Origin: Fimicolochytrium jonesii
Lineage: Eukaryota
DNA length: 64,000 bases
Direction: 5' to 3'
Assembly (NCBI RefSeq): GCF_025526975.1
Contig: NW_026515674.1
Location: 186,001 to 250,000, forward strand
The position numbers and the translations under genes were made by a program. How positions within the stretch are numbered: position 1 is the first letter of the stretch; each line of letters opens with the position of its first letter. The notes beneath the pieces are model-generated. The model saw nothing but the letters and a program-made list of their open reading frames with translations, did no database searches and was not told the DNA's origin. Below, in pieces: positions 4,030 through 53,557 of the stretch.

Positions 4030-4207
4030 ACGTCGCGCTTCAGGCCATCCCTAAACGAAAAGGAAGGAAGGATAACTGACACCAGAACTGACACCAAGCA
4101 TTCTTTCTTTCTGCCAGCGCCTTGCCCCCAGAGTCCTTGCCAAAGCCTTACCCCATCCGTAGCGCCCCGGCCAGACCTGCACACGTACTACTACAGCTGA
4201 TCCCATA

Positions 4208-5568
4208 ATGTCTCTCACCAAACTGTCACACACTTTTGACGTCGTCCAGAAGTATCAACACGATGCGGCGTTCATGAACGTTGTCGCTGAACGTCCTGGG
4301 ATCACCTTGAAGAATATTCAAGGAACGGGGGGCTTCAGCTCAGCGTCCGAGTGGGGGTTCCAGTATTGCTCCGCTCTCAAAGCGCATGCCATCGTTGCAG
4401 ACGACGTATGGGATGTAGTACCCCTGGAGTTCCGTCCCACCGAGGAGGGTAAGCCAGAGCTAAGTTCGCTAAGCTCTCAAATGCAGGATATGCGTTTGAC
4501 ATACCGTCTGGCTTTTTTTTCCCGGGTTTAGAACTCGAATTCGCACGACCCTTCTTTGAATTGAACAGGTCAGAGATTCGGGAGCATGACAGGCAAAAGC
4601 AGTATTCTTTCGCCATACGGTCGCTATACCGAGCACTTTCGCTCGTATTAGCCTTCTCGTCCGCTGAGAGCGTGGCCTCCCAGGAATCACAGGAGAGCAC
4701 GAAGCAAGACAAGGATGAAACCGTAGTCGTGAATTTTCTCGATCGCTACTTGGACTTTGTGATCGAGCCCTTCGAAGACGCCGGAGCGTTGGATGGAACG
4801 CCCATGAGGGTGGAGCTTAGGTGAGACGGAATACGACAATGACGTTTGGGGTTACGGGCCATGTCTCCATTGGGGTTATTAGGCAATAGTTGCGTTATTG
4901 ATATATATGGGAAACGCAACTATTGCCTAATAACCCCAATGGAGACATGGCCCCCGGTTGGATTCATATGGCATAGGTGCTGACATCCCCTCCAGACCCC
5001 AACCTTTTGTTGAGGGTGTCTGGTTACGTGGTGTCAAGGTGCCGTGTAGGACGGATGGAACTGTGTCCGTCGCCATCGCAAGCGGGAAAAAATCCACAAA
5101 GACTCGCACGCAGCCTGCCCTCCTTCTTGAGTGTAAGCGTTTTGTACACAAAAAGACGGATGCGAACATTGTTGGCCAATTGGCCGCCGAATTGATTTCC
5201 ATGGCACAATCTGGGCGAGAGCAGAAAGTCCATGCAGATCCTGAGGTAACCTTCGCCCAGTCTATCGTTTACCGGAAACCACCCTACTCATTCTCGTACA
5301 CATTTAGCGTTTGGAATCCTCCTTCATCACCGCCATGCACAGATCATCTCCGCGGCGTTTTCTCCCGGTTACCTCGACAAACTTGACCGTCGAGAAGAAA
5401 TGGTTGAGAGCGATTTTTTGGCAATCAAAGCTACCAAAGCTTTTCATATGGGACTGGGCGAGGATAGGCTGAATTTCACATCTGCCTTGATTGCGCTGGT
5501 AAAGTATCTGGTGTCGGGCAGAGCTCGTATTGGGAGGCTGGACGAGCTGCAACCCCTTTCAGGGTAGG
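4208..5568 (+). CDS. Hypothetical protein with a C-terminal PD-(D/E)xK (restriction-endonuclease-fold)-like domain; exons 4208-4448, 4532-4820, 4996-5245 and about 5308-5568 (last junction off by 1 nt)
   Basis: Introns 4449-4531 and 4821-4995 join the ORF pieces in frame. Motifs TDG...LLLECKR...VGQLAAEL are followed by a candidate last exon AFGILLH...YLDKL...RLNFTSAL. Confidence 0.55.
4856..4953. repeat. 98-bp fold-back element (41-bp perfect inverted repeats, 16-nt spacer), MITE-like, inside an intron
   Basis: 4856-4896 gggccatgtctccattggggttattaggcaatagttgcgtt is the exact reverse complement of 4913-4953. No clear target-site duplication. Confidence 0.9.
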
Positions 5569-5976
5569 TATCCTTATTTAGGGGGCCTCAAAAGAAACCC
5601 GTCACAGGCCCGTGAGAGAAAGTCCGACAACGAGCTTGAACTTGAGTGAGGCGTCTGAACGAGACACCTGAAGAAGGATGCTCAAGATATCCATGTTGGA
5701 AGCCACGTACGAGCCTCGAGGTCTTAACGCTTCATTTTTGTACGTAGTTAAAGGTATAAATTTCATCATCAAGTTACCATAACCCGGTGCTTTCAATGAG
5801 CCTCGAGTCGGTTCTTCTACTCGCATGTCTCTTGCTTCGAGATCTCCCGACTTGCCCTTCCCTCCATAAACCAGAAAAAAACTCAGCTTTCTATGTCCAT
5901 CTACACATCCGCTCCACGCATATGTCGCCTCCCCTATAATACTTTCCCTCCAAATGCCAGTGGGCCGTAACAATGT

Positions 5977-35201: not shown

Positions 35202-36125
35202 GTTCGGTTGGTTTGACGGAAGATGTCCTGATTGGGGTTGCCTTAGTCAAGCTGCAGTGGGTTCCGCCCTCCTCTCACAGCGAGAAGCACTGGAGAACAC
35301 GCGGGGAGCCACTTCCGCAAAATCAATCGCCTTGGGCCTACCCGCACTCCCACCGCTTGACGAACCCAGCAGCGACCAACATCAGGAGGACGAGCAATGG
35401 CAGCCTTCATTATGCACTCGTGCGAATTCTCTTTTGGATTAAATATAGACATCAAAGTATGCTCCGTCCGTTCAGCTCAGAGCTTGCGCTCGCCGAGTGA
35501 AGATCCCTTGCGTCGATTCCACGCCTAGTCTCGCTTCAGACGAACACGATCGTGAACTAAAACCACGCATCGCTTCCCCACTCCGTTCCCGCCGATAACT
35601 TCCAATGCCCTCATCTATCCAGGAGTAATCCTACGATATGCCCTCTTGACGTCCGCGTCAGCGTAAAGCTTTCCCGGAGCTATTATGTCAAAATGGCTTC
35701 CAGACAGATTTCGACAGCGCGGGCGTCCTTCATGTCAGCCATCCTGTCATTCTGCTGGCGAAAGTCCGCTCAGCAGGTGTACGCCCCTTCCCACCCACAT
35801 GCTTCACTGGCCACGATTGGATTAGCACCTTACTCGCTTATTCAAGGAAGACACAAAAAAAGCGCGCAGTCCACACCTTGCACGTCATACCGCATGAAGA
35901 AAAGAAGGGACTGTTCCGATACTCTGAAGACAACGAGCCTTTACTCGCGTTGCATTCGTCGGCACCCACACTTCTCTATGCGCTAGACAGAAAAGCGAGG
36001 AGGAAAACCCAGCTGTCATTCCGCCAATTCTTATCTGCCCCCATAGAACGTCACTATTTCCTATTCGCTATCGGGCGCTGTGGATATCAGTAACTTTCAA
36101 AATTTCGCGCCACACCCCAACGGCG

Positions 36126-39100
36126 ATGCCCACACGTCGCCTACAACGATGCATCCTTTTGCTGGTAATACTTGCTTTTCTGTGCAGCGAGATTGTATTT
36201 GCAGCTGCTGTCGGACATCGTCGGAACGACGCGGACTTTGAAGTGAAGCTGGATGTTGATCGACGGCAGGTTAATGGTGTTCCGCCAACGGATCTGGCAT
36301 CGACTAGTGATGCATCATTATCGACGAGCACAAGCACCAGCAGCAGCAGCAACAGCAGCACAGATTCTGCAACCGATATAACAGCAGCAGCTACCCCAAC
36401 ATCCACCACAGACACACCCACACCGACACCCTCCAACGACATAATACCTGCAGAGTACACACCCCCAGGCGAAGCCTACATTACCATCACCTCCGTCGAC
36501 CCGCCCTCCGTCTACACTAGCCGCGGCCCGCAATACATCTCCCTCGTCGGGACGAACTATACCTCCCTCGACGCATCCACGTACGACATCAAGCTCACCA
36601 ACGCTTCCCTGCCCACAGGCGCCGCCCAGCTCACCGTCCTCTCCGACACCCTGGCCGTCGTGCTGGTCGACACGGACGCCGTCGAGCTAGCTGGCGCCGC
36701 GTACAAGAATGGCGGGTTCGGACTTACTGTCAATGGGGTTGATGTCGTGCATGATATACGTTGGGTCGACCCCGTGAAATCGATTGCCACGAGGGTATTT
36801 CCGAGTAGGGTAATAGTCGACAACGCCAACCCCGTCACTATCGTCGGGATCGGGTTATTGCCCCCCGTCGGCACGCCTCTCTGCGTGTTTAACACCACCG
36901 CCGTCTCCTCCTCCCCAGCAACCTGGTCGGCGTCCGACGCAACTTACCAATGCGTCACCCCGGAACTTGACCAAAGCGGCGTGCTGGAACTCAACCTGCT
37001 GTACTACACCCCGCAGGTCGATTTATCACCCTATGGCGGGCTAAGCAACAGTTATCTCTGGCGTCCCACCGAGTTCGTCAGTATCGTTGTCAACCAACCT
37101 CTGTTGCTCTACTACCGCGCGGGGGCACCGCAGCTCATATCGGCGCATTTCACGGGCACGGGGGCTATCGAAGCCGAATTCGATCGTCCAGTAGCGGTAT
37201 ACGATACGAACATCTTCATGACCGACCCGCTCGCCAACGCCCTGCGGACCATCTCGGCTGCCACAGGTCGCGAATCTTTTGGGTGCGATAAGATCTGGTC
37301 TAATCCCTCCACACGTAACGGGCGATTGTGGTTCCGCAACGCCACGGCAGAGTGTCGCGTGCAACGCATGGGCCCACGGACATTCCGTATCAACGTTGGC
37401 GCGCAGGGCGTGCTGGGAATCGAAAACGCCGGCTTGGAACCGATTTACATTGGCGATATCCTTTCCGTGCGTCCCGGGGCAGTGTGGACTGCCGGTCAGC
37501 AACTTAGTCAGACTGCGACGGGCGGGACAATCGTCACAGGCGTCCTCGACAAATCCCAGATCGTGACCCCCGACGTGCGTATCACCGTCCCGCAGATCGT
37601 GAGCGAGTGCGCGGACGTCACGTATGATTTATCTCGGACGATGGGGGCTCTCGGGCGGAACTTTAACAGCACTAGATTCACTGTTGATCCGCCAACGGCT
37701 AGTATTCAGGTTGAGCTGGATAAATTCGAAACGGCGTTTCGGACGCAGAATGTGCTGGTTTACACCGTTCCTGCCTCGGCGTTCCCCGTCGGGCCGGTCA
37801 CGGTGTCGTTTTATATGCAGAATTTCCTTGGTGGGAGTGGGTCCGCTTCGTTCGTGACCGAGAAATTGCCGAGGAGTGATGTACCCTACGTCACGATTGT
37901 CGGACCGGGTAACGATGCACCGCTAGATCAGCTCCACACCGTGAAAGCGGAAGCACACGCAACATGCGGCCAACAGCGTCCCGTCTCCTTCGCGTGGTCC
38001 TCCCCCGACGTCCCGGTCGACGGCGTCGTCACAACCGTCGTGCTGCCACAATACACCATGTCCGTACAACGCCTCTACTCATTTGTGGTACAAGCGCAAT
38101 ATTCCGACGTGCCAGATTCCACCCCCTGGTTCCTCAACTACACCTTCACCTCCGAGCTCGACCGCATCACCCCCGCCACCATCACCGAGCTGACCGCAGG
38201 AACGACCAGCAACATCGAACACATCCCTCCACCTCCGTTGTTACTCTCCACATCCATCTTCGACAGCGGGTACCCCCTCGCATCCACAAACCTCACGGAC
38301 TTCACCTGCATCTGGGAATGCAAGCGGTTGGATAACTCTCAGGGAAAAGGCGACACCGGCTGCTTCAAGCAGGAAACGGGGCAGGACCTCGCTGTACCCG
38401 CTGTCTGCCACGGGGCTAACATCACCGGGTTTTTGGCACCTGGGCGGTATGAGTTTGATTTCTTAGCGGTCAGGATTTCGACGGGGGCCGAGAATGAGTA
38501 TGCGGGGAAATTGGCGTTGAATGCCGTGGATGCGGGGGGAAGCACCGTTGCCCCAATGTTGAGTATAAGTCCGTCGTCGCCGCATCCGTCGGCTTGGGAC
38601 ACGTACACGCTCACCGCCGCCGTGGATCCGCTGTCCATTTCCGCCCTCTCAGCGGTAACCTACACCTGGTTCTCCAACGAAACCTGCTACAACGAAACCT
38701 TCTCAACCGTCACATTCACATCCAACCCGCTTGTTCAAACAGCGCAGGACGGGAACGCGGTGACTTTCTCGCCACAGAGCTTCATTCCTGCTGGCCGCTA
38801 CTGCTTCACCGTCCTCGCCACCGACGCCGCCAACCCATCCCTCCCCGGAGTTGCAACCCTCCTCACCACCGTCCTTGAGCCCCCCGCCGCCGGCTACTGC
38901 GCCTTGAACGCCACCTCGGGAATCGCATACACCGACGTGTTCCGGTACGCCTGCGCCGGGTGGGTGACAGATCAGCTCGCTAAACCAGTGTACTACGATT
39001 TCTGGATCCGCCGCAAGGGGATGGAGACCGTGTGGAGGAATCTGGGGCCGAGGAGCGAGTCGAGTGTGCTGGATACGGTATTGTCCGAGGGAACGTATGA

Positions 39101-41183
39101 GTTGACGGTGCATGTGAGCGACGTGGCGGGGTCGGTGGGGGATGTGCAGACAATATATAGTGTGGTGGTGGCGCCCAATACGACTGCTGGGGGAGCAACC
39201 GCGCCTGCGCTTGGCAAGCGTCGCGCCCGAGCGGATGTCGGTGTGGGTATCAATGTACACATCAACCGCCGCTATGATGCAAACGCAGAGCCCACCCCGT
39301 CCGACTACACCTTCCTCGATACCTCTATCACCTCCTTCCGGCACACCTCCGACTACCGCACCGCGCAAACCAACCTCATTGTCGCCATCCAGCAGCTCAC
39401 CCCCGTGGCGCTCAACACGCCCTACCACACCAAACTCCTGCAACTCTACACCCTCCTGCTCTCCTCGCGCGACATCTACATGGACGCGACCTCGGGTGGA
39501 CCGTATATGGCGCAGGCGTTGCAGGCTATCACGTTTGGGAGCTGGAATCTGACGAGTGGGATTGTGGAGGGGGTGTTTGGGGCGTTGGAGGGTGTTGTGG
39601 CGCAGATTGATGCGACCACGAGGGTCGCGGGCGGGTGTGTGGATGCGAATGCGGCGGGGTTGTTGGTGAAGGTTGTGGATTCGGTGGTGGGGTCGGTTAA
39701 GACTGGGGCTGCGAGCGGGGCGGCGGTGACAGATGACCGTGTCCGGGCCGTACTGGATGTTCTTGAAGGGTGTGTCATCCGAAACCTCCGCGGCGTGTGT
39801 GGGCAGACGGTCAAGTTTGCGGAACCGTATGTCGCGAAAACGGTCGGGAGTGTAAGCACTTCAGGTGGAGGGGATCTCTCCTTCTGTTCCGCGGCGTTTA
39901 CGGTGCCCGCATCGGCGGTGACGGGGTCGTGTGTACGGTATGCGTGCGGGACGGCGGGGTCGGTTGCTGCTCCGATTTCCATCACAGCCGGCGCGCTTGT
40001 ACCAGGCAATCAATCGCTCAGCCTAACTCTCTACGACACCTCCAGCTCAGCATCAGTGCTCAGCGTTCAACTCCCCAACCCCGACATCTCCCTCATGCTC
40101 CCCGTCCCCACCGACCTCTTCGCCCAACAACGCGCACAGCCGACCGCCGGGTTCGTCTGTGCATGGTGGCGCGCCGCCAGCAGCGACGGGAGTGCTGCCG
40201 CGGGGTGGGCGACGGACGGATGTGCGGTGGCCTCCGTAGACGAAGTGAGCGGGACGGCGGTGTGTAAGTGTGCGCATTTAACGGATTTTACGGTCGCGTT
40301 GAGTCCTCAAGGGGGATTTGGGGCAGTTGCGGGTGCGCCGCCTGCCCCGCCTGCTCCTGCATCGACGGCGGCGGTTGTGCCTGATACGACATCGGTTTCT
40401 GTTGATGTGGAGCCGTCTACGTCGTCGACCGCGGAGGTAGTCACAACGTCTTCATCTACCGCAACATCCTCCGCGGAACGCGATGCAACATCCACCACAG
40501 AACCCGACACAACTTCCACCGCGGAAGCTGATGCAACATCCACCGCGGAACCGGACACAACATCCACGTCAACCCCATCGCCGTCCCTCCCCCCCAGCGA
40601 AGAAGCTGTGCCCGGTTTCAGCACCACATCCCTCATAGACGACTCCACCACCACCAGCGCCTCTCCCACTCCCACGCCAACCTCCCCTGAATCCGCCGAT
40701 GCCGCCCCCATCGCCAACGGCGGCAGCAACCCCATCGACCCCTCCGCACCCGATTACGTCTCCGCGACCAGCACCCCGGGCCTCTCCCCCTCCCTCATCG
40801 ACACGTCCCCCGCCCCCACCACATCCACCTCCTCCGCCGCCAAGATTGCCGGTGGCGTCATCGGCGGCCTGCTTGGTCTCGCCCTTGTTCTCCTCCTACT
40901 ATTCTGTCTCCGCCGGTACCGCCATAACGAGTGGTATGAGAAATCCGTCCCGCCGCCCAATCGGGAGAGTCTGTGGCACGGGTTGGCGCCGCCGCCGAGA
41001 CATCGCGCGCCGAGTCCGGTGCATTATAGGGGCGCGGATATGCGGACTTATGGGTTTGGTGGTGGGGCTGGGGTTGGGCATCCGGTGCCGGGGATTAGCG
41101 TGCCCGAGTATCTAAGGCCGCCGAGGTGGGAGCAGCCGGTTGCGGGGAATGTGTTTTCGAGTAGGGATCGGTTGTATGCGTGA
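36126..41183 (+). CDS. 1685-aa type I membrane protein: signal peptide, Ser/Thr tract, IPT/TIG-like and REJ-like beta modules, GAIN/GPS motif, mucin-like stalk, single TM, Pro-rich tail
   Basis: Hydrophobic N-terminal signal. REJ-like PPAAGYC..TSGIAYTDVF.YACAGW.....P.YYDF. GPS motif CAWW...WATDGC...CKCAHLTDF at 40158-40289. TM IAGGVIGGLLGLALVLLLLFCL at about 40845-40910. Confidence 0.88.
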   Translation: MPTRRLQRCILLLVILAFLCSEIVFAAAVGHRRNDADFEVKLDVDRRQVNGVPPTDLASTSDASLSTSTSTSSSSNSSTDSATDITAAATPTSTTDTPTPTPSNDIIPAEYTPPGEAYITITSVDPPSVYTSRGPQYISLVGTNYTSLDASTYDIKLTNASLPTGAAQLTVLSDTLAVVLVDTDAVELAGAAYKNGGFGLTVNGVDVVHDIRWVDPVKSIATRVFPSRVIVDNANPVTIVGIGLLPPVGTPLCVFNTTAVSSSPATWSASDATYQCVTPELDQSGVLELNLLYYTPQVDLSPYGGLSNSYLWRPTEFVSIVVNQPLLLYYRAGAPQLISAHFTGTGAIEAEFDRPVAVYDTNIFMTDPLANALRTISAATGRESFGCDKIWSNPSTRNGRLWFRNATAECRVQRMGPRTFRINVGAQGVLGIENAGLEPIYIGDILSVRPGAVWTAGQQLSQTATGGTIVTGVLDKSQIVTPDVRITVPQIVSECADVTYDLSRTMGALGRNFNSTRFTVDPPTASIQVELDKFETAFRTQNVLVYTVPASAFPVGPVTVSFYMQNFLGGSGSASFVTEKLPRSDVPYVTIVGPGNDAPLDQLHTVKAEAHATCGQQRPVSFAWSSPDVPVDGVVTTVVLPQYTMSVQRLYSFVVQAQYSDVPDSTPWFLNYTFTSELDRITPATITELTAGTTSNIEHIPPPPLLLSTSIFDSGYPLASTNLTDFTCIWECKRLDNSQGKGDTGCFKQETGQDLAVPAVCHGANITGFLAPGRYEFDFLAVRISTGAENEYAGKLALNAVDAGGSTVAPMLSISPSSPHPSAWDTYTLTAAVDPLSISALSAVTYTWFSNETCYNETFSTVTFTSNPLVQTAQDGNAVTFSPQSFIPAGRYCFTVLATDAANPSLPGVATLLTTVLEPPAAGYCALNATSGIAYTDVFRYACAGWVTDQLAKPVYYDFWIRRKGMETVWRNLGPRSESSVLDTVLSEGTYELTVHVSDVAGSVGDVQTIYSVVVAPNTTAGGATAPALGKRRARADVGVGINVHINRRYDANAEPTPSDYTFLDTSITSFRHTSDYRTAQTNLIVAIQQLTPVALNTPYHTKLLQLYTLLLSSRDIYMDATSGGPYMAQALQAITFGSWNLTSGIVEGVFGALEGVVAQIDATTRVAGGCVDANAAGLLVKVVDSVVGSVKTGAASGAAVTDDRVRAVLDVLEGCVIRNLRGVCGQTVKFAEPYVAKTVGSVSTSGGGDLSFCSAAFTVPASAVTGSCVRYACGTAGSVAAPISITAGALVPGNQSLSLTLYDTSSSASVLSVQLPNPDISLMLPVPTDLFAQQRAQPTAGFVCAWWRAASSDGSAAAGWATDGCAVASVDEVSGTAVCKCAHLTDFTVALSPQGGFGAVAGAPPAPPAPASTAAVVPDTTSVSVDVEPSTSSTAEVVTTSSSTATSSAERDATSTTEPDTTSTAEADATSTAEPDTTSTSTPSPSLPPSEEAVPGFSTTSLIDDSTTTSASPTPTPTSPESADAAPIANGGSNPIDPSAPDYVSATSTPGLSPSLIDTSPAPTTSTSSAAKIAGGVIGGLLGLALVLLLLFCLRRYRHNEWYEKSVPPPNRESLWHGLAPPPRHRAPSPVHYRGADMRTYGFGGGAGVGHPVPGISVPEYLRPPRWEQPVAGNVFSSRDRLYA
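40460..40570 (+). repeat. 24-bp-period coding tandem repeat (DATSTTEP/DTTSTAEA/DATSTAEP/DTTSTSTP)
   Basis: Four 8-aa units in the post-GPS stalk. Confidence 0.8.
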
Positions 41184-43719: not shown

Positions 43720-44154
43720 AGGGCTCGATGAGACGTTTCGTTTTCGACTGGTCCGCCCCTCGCTTCTTTCGCCGCAAATACGAACGGATGACAAAGGCGT
43801 AGCTGGTTCCATTCGGATGCCAATTTGGAAACGGCGTGTGTGGTATGCGATTGTGGGATAGGTGCGGGATCTTTTTTCTTTCTTTTCGTGCAGGCACTTT
43901 CTACATAGCAATGTTGTCCTAATGGTTTCTGATCTTTCTTCTGTCGTTTTTTCACTCTGCTCTTTTCCTTCCCCCTCTTTCCCCTAATGCCCGCTCGCGA
44001 ACCGATGTATGCGTGTCAACATCTTTTTTTCCTTCGAGTTTTGTGATCTTTTTCGATTTCCATAATGTAATGCATATGATAGTGTGAAAAGTAACATGTC
44101 ACCCCTCCAAAACGCCGGCTGAGGTTCCATGATCTACACATCTCAATACACACG

Positions 44155-44345
44155 CATCGACGGATGAGTGTCCCAGAAGTCCGTTACAGCCGGGACTGTG
44201 TCATCGGGAGCGATTCCTACTCCGTCATCTGAGCACATCCACTTGAGCCTGGACCCAGCATGAGTCTCCGTGGGAGAGGGTGGTATGGGAGACGTCTACT
44301 CTACCACCACCCTCTCCCACGGAGAAACTCGTGCTGGGTACGCTA
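44155..44345 (-). ncRNA. Candidate Fanzor omega-RNA scaffold
   Basis: 87-nt hairpin at 44253-44339 with a 20-bp perfect core, starting right after the Fanzor C-terminal motif, plus shorter stems at about 44159-44229. Position matches known Fanzor/TnpB loci. Expression unverified. Confidence 0.5.
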
Positions 44346-44575
44346 CAAGGATCCCTCCGAAACATATTCTGCCTCTGTCCTTGATGAGCGTTCATGTACA
44401 GAAAGAGGCTTCGGATGTTCCTTGCCGCGTTCACGTCCCGGTTCCACTGCAGCGGGAGGGGAAGTCAATGAGGGGGCGGGAGTGCAAAATCATCAACGCC
44501 TCGTCCATACTCACATGCGTCAAACAGCGGTCATTGCAGACCTTGACACTCCATAAGCGGGTGCGTATCGGCGGG

Positions 44576-44657
44576 GCGCCTCTTTCAACGATGCCCCGGA
44601 AGAGCGCGCATGGTGGACGAGTTCCGTACTCTTCCGGGGCATCGTTGAAAGAGGCGC
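44576..44657. repeat. 29-bp perfect inverted repeat with a 24-nt loop (fold-back inversion scar inside the Fanzor)
   Basis: 44576-44604 is the exact reverse complement of 44629-44657. Confidence 0.92.
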
Positions 44658-45820
44658 TTGCGAAGGGCTTTGAGCGGGGTCGAGGCGTGTCCCTTTGAGT
44701 CGTGCTGAAAGCTCCCGTTGCCCAGCGCAATTACGGCCGTCTCCGCCCCGCCGCAAGTCAATCGCTTGACGATCGCGTCCCACGTCCTTTCCTTTGCTAT
44801 GTGGCACTTCCACCGCACCTTGCGCCATCGCTTGATTTGGTAGGAGATCGTGGGCATGTTGCGGAGGAGATAGGTCAGGTAGACGCGAAACAGCGGGCCC
44901 GTCGACACCTTGGCACTCGGCATATCGCGGTTGATCGTGACAATGTCGATGTTTTACCACAGCGCTCGTAAAACCCCTTTTTTGCTGACACGAGTCTTGT
45001 CCTTCTTGCCGTCGCCGTAGACGGCCGTTAAGATGTCGGCAGGGAATGCGACGGTGAACAGTGCAGCTCGATCCCGAGGAGGTCGAACGTCTTGTGGACA
45101 GCTTTGAGCAGTTGATGTTGGTAGCGGGACGAACACACGCCGAAAAAGTTATCCGGGAGTGCGCAGCGTTGGGGATGCCGTTGTTCTCGAGGATCCAGCA
45201 GATGGCGTCGCCTACGGTGCAACAAAAGAAACCCGCCGAGCGGACGCCGAACATGTTGCAGTGGTCGGTATAAAGCACGTCACGCCATCGCATCGTCTGC
45301 AGAGGCTAGTCGATCCTGCCGGGCTCCACGACAACGACAAGTGTGTCGGGGGGAATCTTGATTGAAGGAAACGTGTCATCTTCGTCAAAGCCATAGAGGC
45401 CTCCACTGCAGCGCAGGGGAAAATCGCTGGACGAAGAACGGCGCACGGCAACGCTGCACGCGACTCCGTCGGTCGAGATCTCCTGGGCAAATTTGCGGCG
45501 CCCCGCTTTGACCACGCCATGGGGTTGCAAACCCATATCAAAGGAGTCCCAATACCGCGACTTGAGGGTATTACAGTAGGACCCACATCAAGGCTGACCA
45601 GTCAGCCTAAAGATGCACTCAAGGCTGACCAGTCATGTCCCAAAACCATCACCAAAGACAATCCCATGCCTTGTGAAGACGAAACAACATATGATATCCC
45701 ATTCTACTATGTGCAACGAAAAAGTACAAGACGACCTCTGAACATGGGGTCGATACAAAGATCCCTCCACCAGTTATTTCCGCCCAAAAAAGGATATACC
45801 GCTCCAGTACGCGGGTCTGA

Positions 45821-48800
45821 TCAAGCGTACTCAAACTCATCCGTCAACCCCGTCTTGCTCGCATACTGATCAATCCCCTGCTGCTGGTACCTCAGCCCAT
45901 CGGCGTCATCCTCATCCTCGTCCTCATCCTCATGATCAACAACAACCACCTCATCCTCCTCAAACAGTATCTGCGACCCATCATCGCGGTCAAGACTCAT
46001 TCCACTCTCGGATCGGGTGAAGCTGGATCCAGCCCCGGTATTTCCAGCGTCGGAGGTGGGTGCGGGTGCGTAGCGGCGGGATAAGCGACGGAAGAGACGT
46101 TCCATTTCCGCTGTGTCGGGGGCGGAGGGGGGCTCCTCGGATTCGGGTTGGCTGGGCGTGGTGATGGCGGTGGAAGGTACGCCCAACAGCCTTCCATCTC
46201 CGTCTCCGCCTTCCCTCCTCTGGGGAGCATCCTGTAGCACCGGCGGCACGGTGGGCGTCGAGACGGTAGCGGGGCTGGAGGCGCCGTAAGACGAGACACT
46301 CGTCACTGAATAGGCCGCTGGGGATTCGGTGGGTGGGCTGACCACATCGCCGGCCAACGACACCGGACTATCGCTAAAATCCGACACAGGACTCGCCCCC
46401 ACATCCCTGCTTGCTGTTTTCCCAACCGCGCCAACAGACCCATCCTCCGAAACCACACTGGCACTCGATCGCGGCCTCGCCTGATTAGCAGCAGCCGCAG
46501 CCGCCGCCTGCTGCTGCCAGCCCGGCCTCGCAGCCCTCGCCCGTGCACCCGCCTTGATCTTCCAGTCCATAACCGAGTCCCCAAACGCGCGTAAAAACGC
46601 ATCCAGCGTCGCAAACAGCTTAGTCGGCATTTTCTTCTTGCCCGCCACAAACGCGGCCGAGGACGCAGTCACGGTGTCATTGTCGTCGAGACGATACCCT
46701 TCACCCATAACCGCCGCGAGGAAGTCGACGTAATCGGTGAGGTCTTCGCCGAGGTAGCGGGCCACGCGGCCAAATTCTTGCCAGAAGATGTTGGTCTTGT
46801 CCGCAACGTCTTTTACCCGGCTGTCCGCCAACGCCAGAAGGGGCGTAAGGTGTTGCTCAACGTACGCCTCGATATCCATCTCCACCGCCGATTTCGTCGC
46901 CCCTCCGTTGCGCGAATGGGTCTGCAGAGCCCTCAGTGCCTCGACAGTCCTTAACAAATTCTTGAAACTCCTAACAACCGCTTCAAGATCCCACGCGCCG
47001 ACAACGCGCACCTGCGACGTCTCCTCCACAACACCCAGCACCTCCGGCCGATTACGCGCAATCATATCCACCAAAAACGTCATAAGCGACCACTTCCCGT
47101 CCCGCGACTTTACATCCTTCAACCGCGCCAGGCCTTCCAATTTCAATCCGATCGCGCGCGCCTCTTTCGCCATCCACGGCCTGAAACTGCTGTTGGAGTT
47201 CCCCGCCGCCGAACTCGCCGAGTAATCGTAGTTGGTCAGATTACCCAGCTGGAGCACGGATTTGAGCAACCGTTTAAGGTTCTCGTTCTTGCGGAGGGAG
47301 ATCGAGAGGTTAGACATGGTGTCGAGTTTACGTTCAATGTCGTTCACGTCTGCGTCGATCGTGCTCGCGAGGAGGAAGGCGGTGCACATTTCCTCGAGGC
47401 ATGGGACGTTCATGACTTCGCTCATGAATTTTTCGGCGGGGGCTAGTGGCGGGGCGTGCTTGGAGAGTTCGGTGGATAGAGGATTCGGGCTGGTGGGGCT
47501 TTTGAGCTCGTTTGCGGCTACGGTAGCAAAGTGCGCGCGGAGGACGGATTTTTCCTCGTCGGTGGGGAGCAGTCTTTGTAACATGAGGAGATCGTCGGCG
47601 GTGAGAGTGGTCCGATCCATTGTGCGGATCGCTGTGATGAGCTTATCGGTCGTTAATCCGCGACGTGTGAAACGGGAGAGGCCGATGGCGACGTTGTTGG
47701 CACGGCGGAGGTCGAGTAAGTTGGTGAATTGTGTCCTGAAGAAAAAAACATATAATCAGAGAAGGTGTCTGGCACACCAACAAACACACATATCCATACC
47801 TTTGCACCATCTTAGGTTTATCCTTCCCACCTGCCTTCTTCTCTCCGGGCACAATACAAAACAGCTCTAAAAAAAAAAAAAAAACAAGCCAAATCAGCAA
47901 TCACAATCTTCATCCCCCACCGCAACCAAACACAGCCATCGAAAAAGGAAACCGTACCTTCGAACCTCTGCACATCCAACTCCACATCATCCCCATCCCC
48001 ATCCTCCCCGCCCTGCGGCGCAATCTCGCTCCACACCGACCCTTCGATGTTGCGGATCTCGTCCCAGTGGATGCGGGCGCGTGCGCGGATCTTGCCGGGG
48101 CCTTCGTCCGCGTCCTGCTCGGATGATGCCCGGCCCATTGGTGGTGGTGGAGGAGGTGGTGGTGGTGGAGGAGGTGGTGGCGGTGGTGGTGGTGGAGGTG
48201 CGGGGCCCGGAGCAGCGACTGGCGATGGTTCCACATCCCTCCGCAGCAACGGCGAACGTGACAGCAAAGGCGACACAGCCTCAACAAGCACATCCTCCGA
48301 CGGCGGCCCCGCCTCCGGCAACAGCATCGGTCTCGGCACCTTCAGCTCCCTAACTGGCGAGCTCGGCGGTTCGGCCGACCCGGGCGGAAGGGGCCACGGC
48401 ATCGGCCCGTCACTGATCGATGTATCCACCGATGTATCCACCCTGTGTCGCCCCGTTGCTTCGGCCGTGATGGCGTGCAATTCACCGAGCAGGTCTTTCA
48501 TGTTTTTGGCGGTTGTCGAGGAGGTGGGTGTTGAGGTGTCGTCGATTCGTGTGGTTTTGCCTGATACGCCACGCATGCGTCGCATTTCTGCTAAGACATC
48601 GTTTAAGCTGTCTGCGCTGGATCCATGCGCTTTTCCGCCGCCGTTAGACACCGCTGGCACATCCCCTTGCGCCGAATCAGGAACCTCCGGCAGACTTTTC
48701 CCACGATGATATGCCGACGACGTCTCTGGTAACGGCGAATTCCTCCCTCTCCTTTCATCCACCTTCCGCGCCTCATTCAGTAATCTCTCCATCCGACCAA

Positions 48801-50778
48801 CGTTATGATTATCCAGCTGCGCTTGGTCCGATTTTGATCGCAGCTGCGATCGGAATGGCGCTACAGGGGACGGGGACGCCGCCCTCGCCTCGTAGACGAT
48901 CGGAACTGGCGCGGGGTGGATGTAGGCGTGGCGTGTTTCGTGTACTTGGATTTCGGGCGCGAGGGAGGCGGAGTGCGTGGAGGAGCGGTTGGAGCCCACG
49001 CTAAGCGGGCGGTCTGCGTCCTGGGAGGGTACGTGCTGGTATGGGTGGAGATGCGAAGCTGGGGCGGGGAGACGGGGTGATACTGGACGCGGGGAGATGT
49101 CGCGCTGGGATGCGGGGGCTGCCGGTGCCAACCTATATCCGCTCTTGTGAACGCTGTCCTGTGACGAGTTTAGGGACGTCGACGCCGTCACGAATGTCTC
49201 CACAGACCCTCTTCGATCCCCAGATTCGACGTGGCGTCGCCCGCGATCGCCACCGTCAGTCTCATCCGGCAAGCGCACCTCTGGAACCGTCGACACCGGC
49301 GAGCTGGTGTAATACGCTCCATCCTTCCCCGCAAAAACGCCACTATTGGGCGCATCCCTCTCCGCACCATGAGTCCGACTCAAAGCCGAGCTAGTCGACC
49401 GCTGTGAGGCGCTGGAGTTCATTCGACCGAAGGTGGGGTCCTCCTTCCCATCAAATCTCCCAACGGACCCAGATGATCTCACGCTCGACGTGGTACTACG
49501 ATGATCCCCACTCTGCGCGTCGTCCAGGCTTCGGAGTTGTTGGATCCACATCACGGCTGACCGTGGGTCATTGTTGGCGCGCTGTAGGGCACATTGGGAT
49601 AACGCGAGGCCGTAACCCATATCCCGTAACGCGCGCACCGCGTCGTCGGTGGTGATTATCTGGTGATGCGCGACCAAGTCCACCAGGCAGTGCTTTGAGC
49701 GTTTGTCGATCATGCGCTGGAATGCCATCGGTGTAAGAGCAGCTTGCGATCGCGCGGCGCCCCCGTCCGCAAAGAAGAGGTAGAAACAGAATGCGCTCAT
49801 CGCTGCATTGAGGTCCCCAGCTGCTTCCATGGCCTTGATGGAAGGCTCTGCAACCTCGATATCCTTCGCCCCGACCCGGATAACACCTGCCACCATAAAC
49901 CCGGCGTTAAAGGAAAGACTTGCAACCGTGTTTATCTGACGGGGATGGTGCACCGGGTCAGGGGTGTGATAGCACCGGAGCTGGATGTCTGCCTCCAACA
50001 ATAACGGCGAATCAGCCCCGACACGGAAGACGATGTTCCCACGAGAATCTGTCCGCACGAGCGGTTTCTGCTGAGGGTCCTGCGACGACGCCTTGTCATC
50101 GCGTTTGACAGTTGTGTATAGGAGCCTGCCGTTCTGATACAGTTCGATATGAGGCTTCGTCGCCGTTGTTAAGAGCTGATTCAAACCGCTGACGACAACG
50201 CGATTGAGTAAGAGCGGATTGGGATTTGGCAAAACGCCGTCCAGGACTAGCACGTTGTTGAAGTATGTCGCGTACCGCCGTTGAGAGACGGTGGCCCACG
50301 AAGGTGGTGTTAACGGTGCTCCTTCCTTCCCTTTCGCTTTTGCCCGACGCAAGATGTAGTAATCGAAGGCTTCCGCGGCATCGGTGAACGCCTCTATGTA
50401 GCGAAGATAACACGCAATCGCCACGCCACTCCGCCCTTCCGTCGGGCACGTCACGATCGCAACATGACCCGGGTCCAATGATAACCATCCATGAATCGAC
50501 CGACAAATATCAAACAAGGTCGGAAGTGTGAGCGAATACGCTTTCGAAAATGGGAAAGCCACGACCTGGTTTCCAAACTCCGCCGTCTCGAAACGCCCCA
50601 ACGATGTATCCGCGGCGAGATTGAAAATCATATATCTGCCGGGATACCGCGTGTTGACAAAGCGGGCCATTTCTCCTACATTATTCCGTCGGGCTCGTTT
50701 GTCAGTGGGGAAATCGCCAAACAATCCAGCTGCAAGGACTCTATCTGTGATACGATCGAGATCCAGATTTGCCATCAT
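45821..50778 (-). CDS. Formin with N-terminal PTEN-like pseudophosphatase + C2, UBA-like segment, FH1 and FH2; two introns at about 47957-47866 and 47799-47736; additional 5' exon(s) likely up to about 51.2 kb
   Basis: PTEN-like LDLDRITDRVLA..YMIFNL..SIHGWLSLDPGHVAIVTC..GRSG..SQRRY..YF, C2 PHIELYQ..LEADI..FNAGF, a poly-Pro tract, and FH2 RIHWD..S.W..FEELF..LLDLRRANNVAIGL..LPTDEE..AEKF..LQLGN..LKDVKS. Confidence 0.92.
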
Positions 50779-51932
50779 TCGACGGAAAGTCGGGTCTTTA
50801 GGAAACGGAGGGGCCGCTAAGTGCGCAGCCGGCTCAGGATGGTTCTCCGACGTTTCTGGGAAGAACGGATCCCTGGTGATGAGAGGACCTGAATCGAAGT
50901 TTGGTGGGAGAGGGGTAACGCTCCCCGTTCGTGAAGCCGGTCTGTTTCCATTGATAGGAGTATCCGCTCTGAGAGAGGAAGCTACGGACGGATATCATGT
51001 TGAATGAGATTTAAGTTGGTCGTATTAAAGGCTTCGGCGAACTACTAACCACTTCCAGTGGATCCAGTTGACGTTGCATTCCGCGCCCCACCGGATCGAA
51101 ATATTCCTGCATCAGAATTCTTCTTGCGGATTGCGCTCGATATGCCCTGCGATGGGTGAAAGAGCTTGGTTTAAAAACCCTCCGCAGCTTCATTGCCTAC
51201 TAAAACACATGCCGCTTTGACGGGTCTTCAGTGTAGTGTAATCCTCCGGCTTCTTCAACTGTCACCCTCGCAGCCCTCTTAGCGCTGTGAAGAGGTGAAG
51301 CTTGCACTCCCCCGCCTCAGCCTATAAATCTCCTTCTATGGACACAAACGGACATCATGAACCTACCGAAACAAACGACATAAATACTTCTGCACCTGCC
51401 GGGGGCTTCCTTCAATCTAAAGATACACTAAAGAGCCAGAGTCGTTTTTCCTCCGCAGTCGGTTAACAGTTTCGGGTTTTATCAGAAGGAGTTGGTTCGG
51501 TCGAATGTCGAAGGGACTGATAACCTGCGCGAGTTCAAGATCCCGCAAGTGTACATGCAGTGCCCCTGCCCGCAGGGGTATTCGAAGAGAGAAGGTCGTT
51601 CCTGTTGCGGTGGTGTGGAGGTGTCTATGTTGTTGTCGGGGGCAGCAGGTTGTGAGAAAGTGAACGTGGGATTGTTGTGATGGCCGTAAGGTCTCTGGTG
51701 GGAAACGTCGAAACAGAGGTGTTTTACAAGCTTCAAATTGGGAAATTACGAGCTTGAACGCGGCAAACACCCCGGACAAACGAACCCACATTCACACAAG
51801 AGGGGCGGTGCTTTCAGAATGATATGCTGTTCAATACATTTGTGACGAAACATCCATCCAGCGATGCAATGATATTAATGTACACAGTACATGACCATGC
51901 AAAGTATACAAAGTATATGACTTTTGCTACTC

Positions 51933-53316: not shown

Positions 53317-53557
53317 CTATAGTGTACGGTCTGCGTCGCGGATGCATATGCACCTGCCAGCTCTTGATGGTGCTGCGTGCACATCTCTGACTAATAGCCA
53401 TCCCCTTAATGTACACTCTGCGCCGCTGACGCAGATATGCCTGGCAGCACCTGCATGCACATCCTGACCAGTAGCCATCCCCTTAATGTACGCTCTGCGT
53501 GGCGGTTCCAGATGCACCCGACGGCACCCCATACAGCTGCGTATACATCCTAACCAG
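53317..53557 (-). repeat. Three diverged tandem copies (about 78-84 bp) of the PEX4 3' end
   Basis: tagccatccccttaatgtac.ctctgcg occurs at 53395-53422 and 53472-53499, with a more decayed copy near 53317-53345. Confidence 0.8.

Follow-up and report, generated by a model that had tools for sequence, protein, structure and literature searches.

Analysis of the window, that is, the whole 64-kb stretch of Fimicolochytrium jonesii DNA considered here, led to a minus-strand relic that very probably represents the C-terminal ~40% of a Fanzor1 gene, truncated, broken and predicted to be dead; its ancestor was likely an RNA-guided DNA nuclease that was spliced and carried by a transposon. A phmmer search of 1.84 billion proteins with its 108-aa core (44630-44953, minus strand) returned 117 homologues at E ≤ 0.001, 19 of them at E ≤ 1e-10; the best match was P0001 (739 aa, 50% identity, E 2.6e-24), and P0002 (687 aa) showed 49% identity. 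Profile A1, built from 37 longer homologues out of these matches, recognized the Fanzor1 structures of SpuFz1 (E 9e-48), GtFz1 (E 5e-40) and PpFz1 (E 6e-39), and was much weaker on mimivirus L79 (E 1e-9), which we take to be the Fanzor2 ApmFz2, and on ISDra2 TnpB (E 2e-4); PF07282 is present in 31/37 of its members. The homology thus places the predicted protein with Fanzor1 rather than with Fanzor2 or TnpB. With its breaks bridged by X, the relic itself scored E 3e-74 on A1, a value that is not independent of the phmmer search because A1 was built from matches of the core, and its identity was 44% to P0002 and 41% to P0001. An earlier note, made from the sequence alone, had read this DNA as a Fanzor1 relic and had proposed a profile comparison of the reconstructed peptide with Fanzor1 and TnpB: its reading is borne out by the number of homologues and by the A1 matches to the relic and to the three Fanzor1 structures (all E ≤ 6e-39).

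The relic was joined to the named Fanzors via the homologue profile, since the core directly matches nothing relevant in Pfam, PDB or a word-indexed search: none of four relic pieces matched in Pfam, the word-indexed protein search gave 0/59 candidates, and the PDB search at E ≤ 10 returned no relevant match, its sole match, glycine N-methyltransferase (E 0.9), being rejected as chance. In the Atlas search the core led to unnamed clusters at 0.96 and to a PF07282 lead at only 0.88. In a quick tree built on 62 rows out of 132 (≥75% coverage of the region, near-duplicates removed, P0131 left out) and eight giant-virus rows, the relic grouped with P0001, P0002 and P0127-P0130 at a node that is not strongly supported (SH-aLRT 89). 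P0001 reaches SpuFz1 only at E 6.5e-7, which argues that the clade of the relic is a subfamily different from SpuFz1. P0131, a truncated relative of P0002, is from another chytrid, Phlyctochytrium arcticum. In viral contigs, the core was found in 0/13 candidate loci and A4 in 0/36, and A2 retrieved distant giant-virus Fanzors only (21-31%). Related loci numbered 0/27 and 0/5 in prokaryote genomes and 1/187 candidate stretches in metagenomes, namely L081.

NCBI taxonomy places F. jonesii in the Spizellomycetales, Powellomycetaceae, and the neighbouring genes in the window (formin, DHX37, eIF3a, PPR and REJ/GPS) are eukaryotic. An eIF3a exon of the window shows 100% identity, across 99% of its length, to a protein of F. 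jonesii; the next matches, from Powellomyces, Geranomyces and Spizellomyces, reach 77-81%. The comparison with the chytrid Spizellomyces punctatus that had been drawn before is therefore apt, the host being a chytrid of the same order. Among the neighbours, the formin (45821-50994, minus strand) carries a PTEN-C2-like region and an FH2 domain, and an open frame of 1751 codons (35928-41183, plus strand) has REJ and GPS domains, a polycystin/adhesion-GPCR-like combination in a chytrid. Elsewhere in the window, two 65-nt direct copies with a spacing of 77 nt are 77% identical (53387-53528).

Surviving pieces and the 68-nt intron

The relic covers only profile positions 319-611 of 622 (hmmsearch; Table 1). 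The first 400 residues of seven relatives had no tblastn match in the window at E ≤ 0.05, profile positions 1-318 were unmatched, and the stop codon of the formin gene lies ~300 nt upstream of the first match, which argues that the N-terminal half is absent here. The first surviving piece matched residues 401-462 of P0002 by tblastn (39%) and contains no stop codon; its open frame extends to ~45554 (YWDSF), and this extension may or may not be homologous. DNA identity to L081 was 70% over 138 columns in the 108-aa piece, 72% in the zinc-finger piece and 78% over 74 nt in the RuvC-III piece. Except for one member, the minus-strand motif series of the earlier note was recovered: ISTDGVACSV (45479-45450) and VVVEPGR (45335-45315) by six-frame translation, as well as IALGNGSF (44731-44708), KGHASTPLKALRKRL (44695-44651), CNDRC (44538-44524) and WNRDVNAARNI (44446-44414), whereas VDEFRT lies on the plus strand (44613-44630) and in no minus frame. 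The Glu codon GAG that had been noticed in place of the RuvC-I Asp and the Asp codon of RuvC-III (GAC, 44437-44435) were both found.

Table 1. Features of the Fanzor1 relic and its surroundings, in positions of the window.
Feature	Position	Strand	Evidence
First surviving coding piece: ISTDG motif, linker, RuvC-I strand	45309..45509	-	profile positions 319-387, hmmsearch i-E 3.6e-9
GAG (Glu) at the RuvC-I catalytic Asp; DPG reads EPG	45324..45326	-	
17-nt perfect direct repeat (45588-45604, 45619-45635) and short hairpin, near the 5' break	45588..45635	.	
274-nt insert five codons past RuvC-I, flanked by 4-bp direct repeat CGAC	45035..45308	.	flanks colinear with P0002
ILTAVYGD...SKK coding piece, then frameshift (GFYERC in other frame) and deletion of ~14 codons	44954..45034	-	
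Largest unbroken piece, 108 aa: bridge-helix/REC2-type region, IALGNGSF, KGHxSTP, LRKRL	44630..44953	-	phmmer homologues
Perfect 29-bp inverted repeat, arms 44576-44604 and 44629-44657, inverted 24-nt spacer	44576..44657	.	
ARMVDEFRT with the catalytic Glu of RuvC-II, displaced to the opposite strand	44604..44630	+	
Second half of TNB/zinc-finger region (GAPPIRTRLWSVKVCNDRCLTH)	44515..44580	-	hmmsearch i-E 3.6e-5, close-relative profile
Phase-0 GT-AG intron, 68 nt: GTGAGT donor, TTGAC branch-like site (CATTGAC), CAG acceptor (CTGCAG)	44447..44514	-	inferred splicing
RuvC-III (WNRDVNAARNI) and C-terminus	44345..44446	-	hmmsearch i-E 9.5e-13
Long near-perfect hairpin right after the end of coding homology; absent from L081	44253..44339	-	fold z -8.2
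Putative omega-RNA remnant	44135..44254	-	two motifs (44254-44239, 44150-44135) colinear with the L081 post-stop region

Between the last two pieces, the 68-nt stretch is likely a spliceosomal-type intron that would have been spliced while the gene was alive. Its excision (44514-44447) joins CLTH to WNRD in frame, as the earlier note had claimed, and makes the DNA colinear with the intact, intronless L081, which supports the assignment: identity to L081 is 72% before and 78% after the stretch, the alignment gap matches it, and the single codon of L081 at the gap matches CAT of the window. In the host genes for eIF3a and formin, four introns read by eye measure ~64-77 nt and have GT-AG ends; GTRAG and YAG would coincide at fixed ends with a background frequency of 3e-5. 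The further suggestion that an intron-bearing Fanzor family might be undescribed is not supported as a claim of novelty, as intron-bearing Fanzors are already published (PMC10530073).

Introns may also be present in other members of the family. RuvC-II without RuvC-III is found in 36/131 homologues, six of which turn to V-S/R/N directly after C-L; an out-of-frame WNRDxNA follows further on in 3/36, as compared to 1/1249 control stretches. From these protein tails we infer an intron two codons upstream of that of the relic. The database Fanzor1 proteins P0006, P0039 and P0065 (also P0010, P0034 and P0070) appear to be cut by a likely phase-0 intron after the zinc-finger C-L. Introns may thus cluster just before RuvC-III and, the two positions being 6 nt apart, may have been gained independently. 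Since intron-blind gene callers truncate many homologues just before RuvC-III, the clade may be under-counted.

Carrier transposon and 3' region

The metagenome locus L081 encodes P0129, an intact, intronless Fanzor1 of 689 aa, which follows a DDE_3 transposase (E 2.6e-19); both genes lie within 25-bp inverted repeats that are 80% complementary. The DNA of the window aligns colinearly with that of L081 before and after the intron, and likewise to either side of the inverted repeat at 44576-44657. In the window, the L081 transposase had no match (best E 0.32), the L081-type terminal repeat was not found, including at the right end, and no ends or target duplication of a carrier transposon were detected around the single copy. 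Two repeat pairs were considered as element ends, an inverted one of 72% at 44048-44072/45700-45724 and a direct one of 83% at 44335-44358/45745-45768 (blastn E 1.3); both were at chance level and were rejected. The carrier transposon is thus borrowed from a relative of ~70% DNA identity, because the window holds neither transposase nor N-terminal half nor L081-type repeat. We propose that the ancestor would have ridden in a Tc1/mariner-type element, as L081 does, and, by analogy with SpuFz1, would have bound an omega RNA from the post-stop region and cut DNA beside a TAM with a D-E-D RuvC triad. Most likely, such a once-active, Tc1/mariner-borne, spliced Fanzor1 would have lost all but a 3' portion and been disrupted by lesions of the microhomology type. 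Positions 3881-7218 of L081 hold an apparently intact two-gene element, consisting of a DDE_3/HTH (Tc1/mariner-IS630-like) transposase and P0129, which is a ready candidate for an activity test.

Downstream of the coding homology, two motifs colinear with the post-stop region of L081 mark a putative omega-RNA remnant, the second of which runs into the right terminal inverted repeat in L081. In comparison with this one relative, the best local score was reached by 9/2000 shuffles and the colinear pair by 1/2000, and aligning both 3' regions globally with MAFFT gave no information. The shared 3' motif gave 71 loci in viral contigs, which were set aside as chance matches since none had a Fanzor. 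The long hairpin between the end of the coding homology and the first motif, for which Rfam returned generic miRNA-hairpin matches only, all below the gathering score, may belong natively to the omega RNA as an extension at its 5' end or may stem from a second, older template switch. The C-termini of P0001 (LGPGTG) and P0128 (YGPRVRG) look like what the shared 3' DNA motif would encode, suggesting that in some members the ORF can continue into the omega-RNA region. It is very unlikely that the fragment was kept as a guide-RNA donor, i.e., as a ghost-like locus whose 3' region makes omega RNA for use in trans by intact Fanzors encoded elsewhere in the genome. The two motifs in common with L081, the strong hairpin and the ghost loci with working omega RNAs described for S. 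punctatus (PMC10432273) would fit such a role; the locus, however, has no L081-like right-end inverted repeat, the fold of the stretch with the motifs (44125-44265) does not surpass that of shuffled sequences (z 0.43), an intact partner is not known, and retention of the 3' end is also expected from simple 5' truncation.

Flipped RuvC-II motif and degree of decay

The motif missing from the minus-strand series lies in a perfect inverted repeat, partly inside its 24-nt spacer and partly at the border of that spacer. Left arm and spacer, read on the plus strand (RLFQRCPGRARMVDEFRT), aligned to L081 DNA for RLLGRCRLRMVDEYRT, and ARMVDEFRT aligned with L081 DNA coding for LRMVDEYRT; the RuvC-II Glu column is E in 108/111 homologues with a residue there. 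The relocated RuvC-II glutamate, described as a signature in PMC10530073 and 10.1101/2023.08.09.552727, is therefore present in the relic, on the opposite strand. The first zinc-finger CxxC, conserved as C in 103/110 and 101/106 homologues, is gone. We infer from these alignments that the inverted repeat with its flipped spacer arose by a template switch of type 3-1-2-4 (Loytynoja and Goldman, 2017; PMC5453318), which replaced ~8 codons including this CxxC: a single switch during replication or repair that copied 53 nt backwards would account for the repeat, the flipped Glu motif and the loss of the ~8 codons. In contrast to the published events, the ancestral state was taken from a homologue of ~70% DNA identity instead of a near-identical allele (PMC5453318).

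Sense-strand homology restarts at GGCGC, which is partly common to the L081 coding sequence. It is highly improbable that some of the lesions, chiefly this perfect inverted repeat, are artefacts of amplification or assembly: the 29-bp arms are indeed 100% identical and template switching occurs in vitro too, but the arms of the 3' hairpin are imperfect, the junction reuses the GGCGC microhomology also found in L081, and truncation, insert, deletion and the Asp-to-Glu change differ in kind, so that the gene would still be dead. Read as a template switch in the genome, the relic is a clean teaching case in which a catalytic motif was moved to the other strand, misleading frame-stitching by eye. 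Perfect inverted repeats with arms of at least 20 bp and spacers of at most 60 nt occur three times in the 64 kb (4856-4953, 44265-44325 and 44576-44657), each time in DNA that is broken or looks like a pseudogene, a hint that lesions by template switching are common in this genome. The longest perfect inverted repeat of the window (4856-4953; arms of 41 bp, spacer of 16 nt) interrupts an ORF-like but broken region (~4200-5600, plus strand) without Pfam match above the cut-off, and could represent a small element with inverted repeats or a further template switch. A stretch reading LLLECKR...GQLAAEL resembles a fungal PD-(D/E)xK restriction-endonuclease-type domain.

The 274-nt insert, on which the earlier note was silent, as it was on the ~400 codons lost from the N-terminal part and on the L081-like 3' region, showed no terminal inverted repeats by eye, no Pfam match of its longest plus-strand ORF, no Atlas lead and a negative codon score in six frames. 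Its explanation as a minus-strand GT-AG intron was rejected, and explanations as a displaced Fanzor piece (no Fanzor match) or as a known protein (no Pfam match, no Atlas lead) were unsupported. The 17-nt direct repeat near the 5' break is possibly another repair scar.

Decay of the relic is real but moderate and mostly structural. The homologous frames contain no stop in 265 codons; at columns invariant in seven relatives the relic differs at 21/83 and the intact P0001 at 11/92, which fits some decay; and among the family-conserved columns the relic is substituted at 2/32, with four more lost. The absence of stops and the two substitutions argue that neutral decay was limited and leave the timing of the Asp-to-Glu change unfixed. 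The published Fanzor1 motif D-X(125,275)-[TS]-[TS]-X-X-C4 zinc finger-X(5,50)-RD (PMC3627910) is incomplete here, the first D being E and the first CxxC missing, with RD present; as close intact relatives have it in full, this reflects decay. The prediction that the copy is dead, also made before, is thus supported by the lesions and the truncation, and the Asp-to-Glu change would be part of the decay after gene death.

The reverse order is barely credible: here the RuvC-I change would first have abolished nuclease activity, and the spliced gene would for a time have encoded an RNA-guided DNA binder that no longer cuts, equivalent in eukaryotes to TldR, before it decayed. Equally slight is the probability of its extended form, that Powellomycetaceae carry a spliced, non-SpuFz1 Fanzor1 subfamily in which Asp became Glu in a living gene, giving a domesticated, TldR-like binder with a long-hairpin guide RNA, of which the relic is a decayed copy. 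The RuvC-I column is D in 78/80 homologues with a residue there and E in none (51/131 are gapped), the change is conservative, nonsense codons are absent, the intron is present, and the copy adjoins a host gene, transposon ends not being seen around it; but one transversion suffices for Asp to Glu, changes at conserved columns are about twice those of intact P0001, at least five structural lesions are present, the other two catalytic residues are intact, and no second copy or orthologue with Glu occurs among 131 proteins. TldR-like proteins would be recognized by an intact ORF and by catalytic substitutions conserved across orthologues; here, the ORF is broken and Glu is found in none of the 80.

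Relation to known Fanzors

According to the respective papers, the catalytic residues of SpuFz1 are D383, E541 and D606 (PMC11423790), Spizellomyces carries full-length and partial Fanzor1 copies and ghost loci (PMC3627910; PMC10432273), Fanzors capture up to ~9.6 introns/kb, are associated with Mariner/Tc1 elements and include a tested intron-containing Fanzor1c (PMC10530073), and the DPG and shifted-Glu signatures have been described (10.1101/2023.08.09.552727). SpuFz1 (SPu-1; PDB 8gkh; PMC10432273; PMC3627910) and the relic belong to the same Fanzor1 fold family by profile, come from hosts of the same order, and have in common the DPG-type RuvC-I position, the relocated RuvC-II Glu (xDE[FY]xTS), the WNRD of RuvC-III and a putative post-stop omega-RNA region. 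SpuFz1, as described in these sources, is encoded by a single unbroken ORF, and its element of 2.1 kb has inverted repeats of 30-33 bp, whereas the relic is truncated, broken, intron-bearing and of another subfamily. CrFNuc, a Fanzor1c of Chlamydomonas reinhardtii, likewise has spliceosomal introns, which are reported to be common in Fanzor genes, but, unlike the relic, sits in Helitron2 elements of a green alga (PMC10530073).

Closest to the relic are P0001, P0002, P0127-P0130, L081 and P0131, with 41-44% amino-acid identity over the relic and membership of the same quick-tree clade (P0131 excepted). L081 resembles it in three DNA blocks of 70-78% identity and in the 3' motifs, and differs in having no intron, in the presence of transposase and terminal repeats and in lacking the long 3' hairpin. 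The environmental relatives keep the RuvC-I Asp (P0131 ends before it), whereas the relic has Glu. In the Fanzor census Data S1 (PMC10530073; cells cut at 400 letters, no organism names), the N-terminal motif NCQNHV of the clade occurred in 4/3,655 rows, three 'family4' and one unclassified, and five other motifs were not found. A published report on Fanzors in Fimicolochytrium was not found in the available sources: the genus name is absent from the searchable supplements of two 2023 papers, and the accessible text of PMC13533422, which deals with Fimicolochytrium, does not mention Fanzor.

The relic is a real but ordinary pseudogene of an already known kind, and the copy itself is neither usable nor testable. 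What it offers is a pointer to a second Fanzor1 subfamily, a spliced one, within the fungal order of SpuFz1; among its intact relatives, P0002 and L081 have a mapped 3' region and are ready as candidates.
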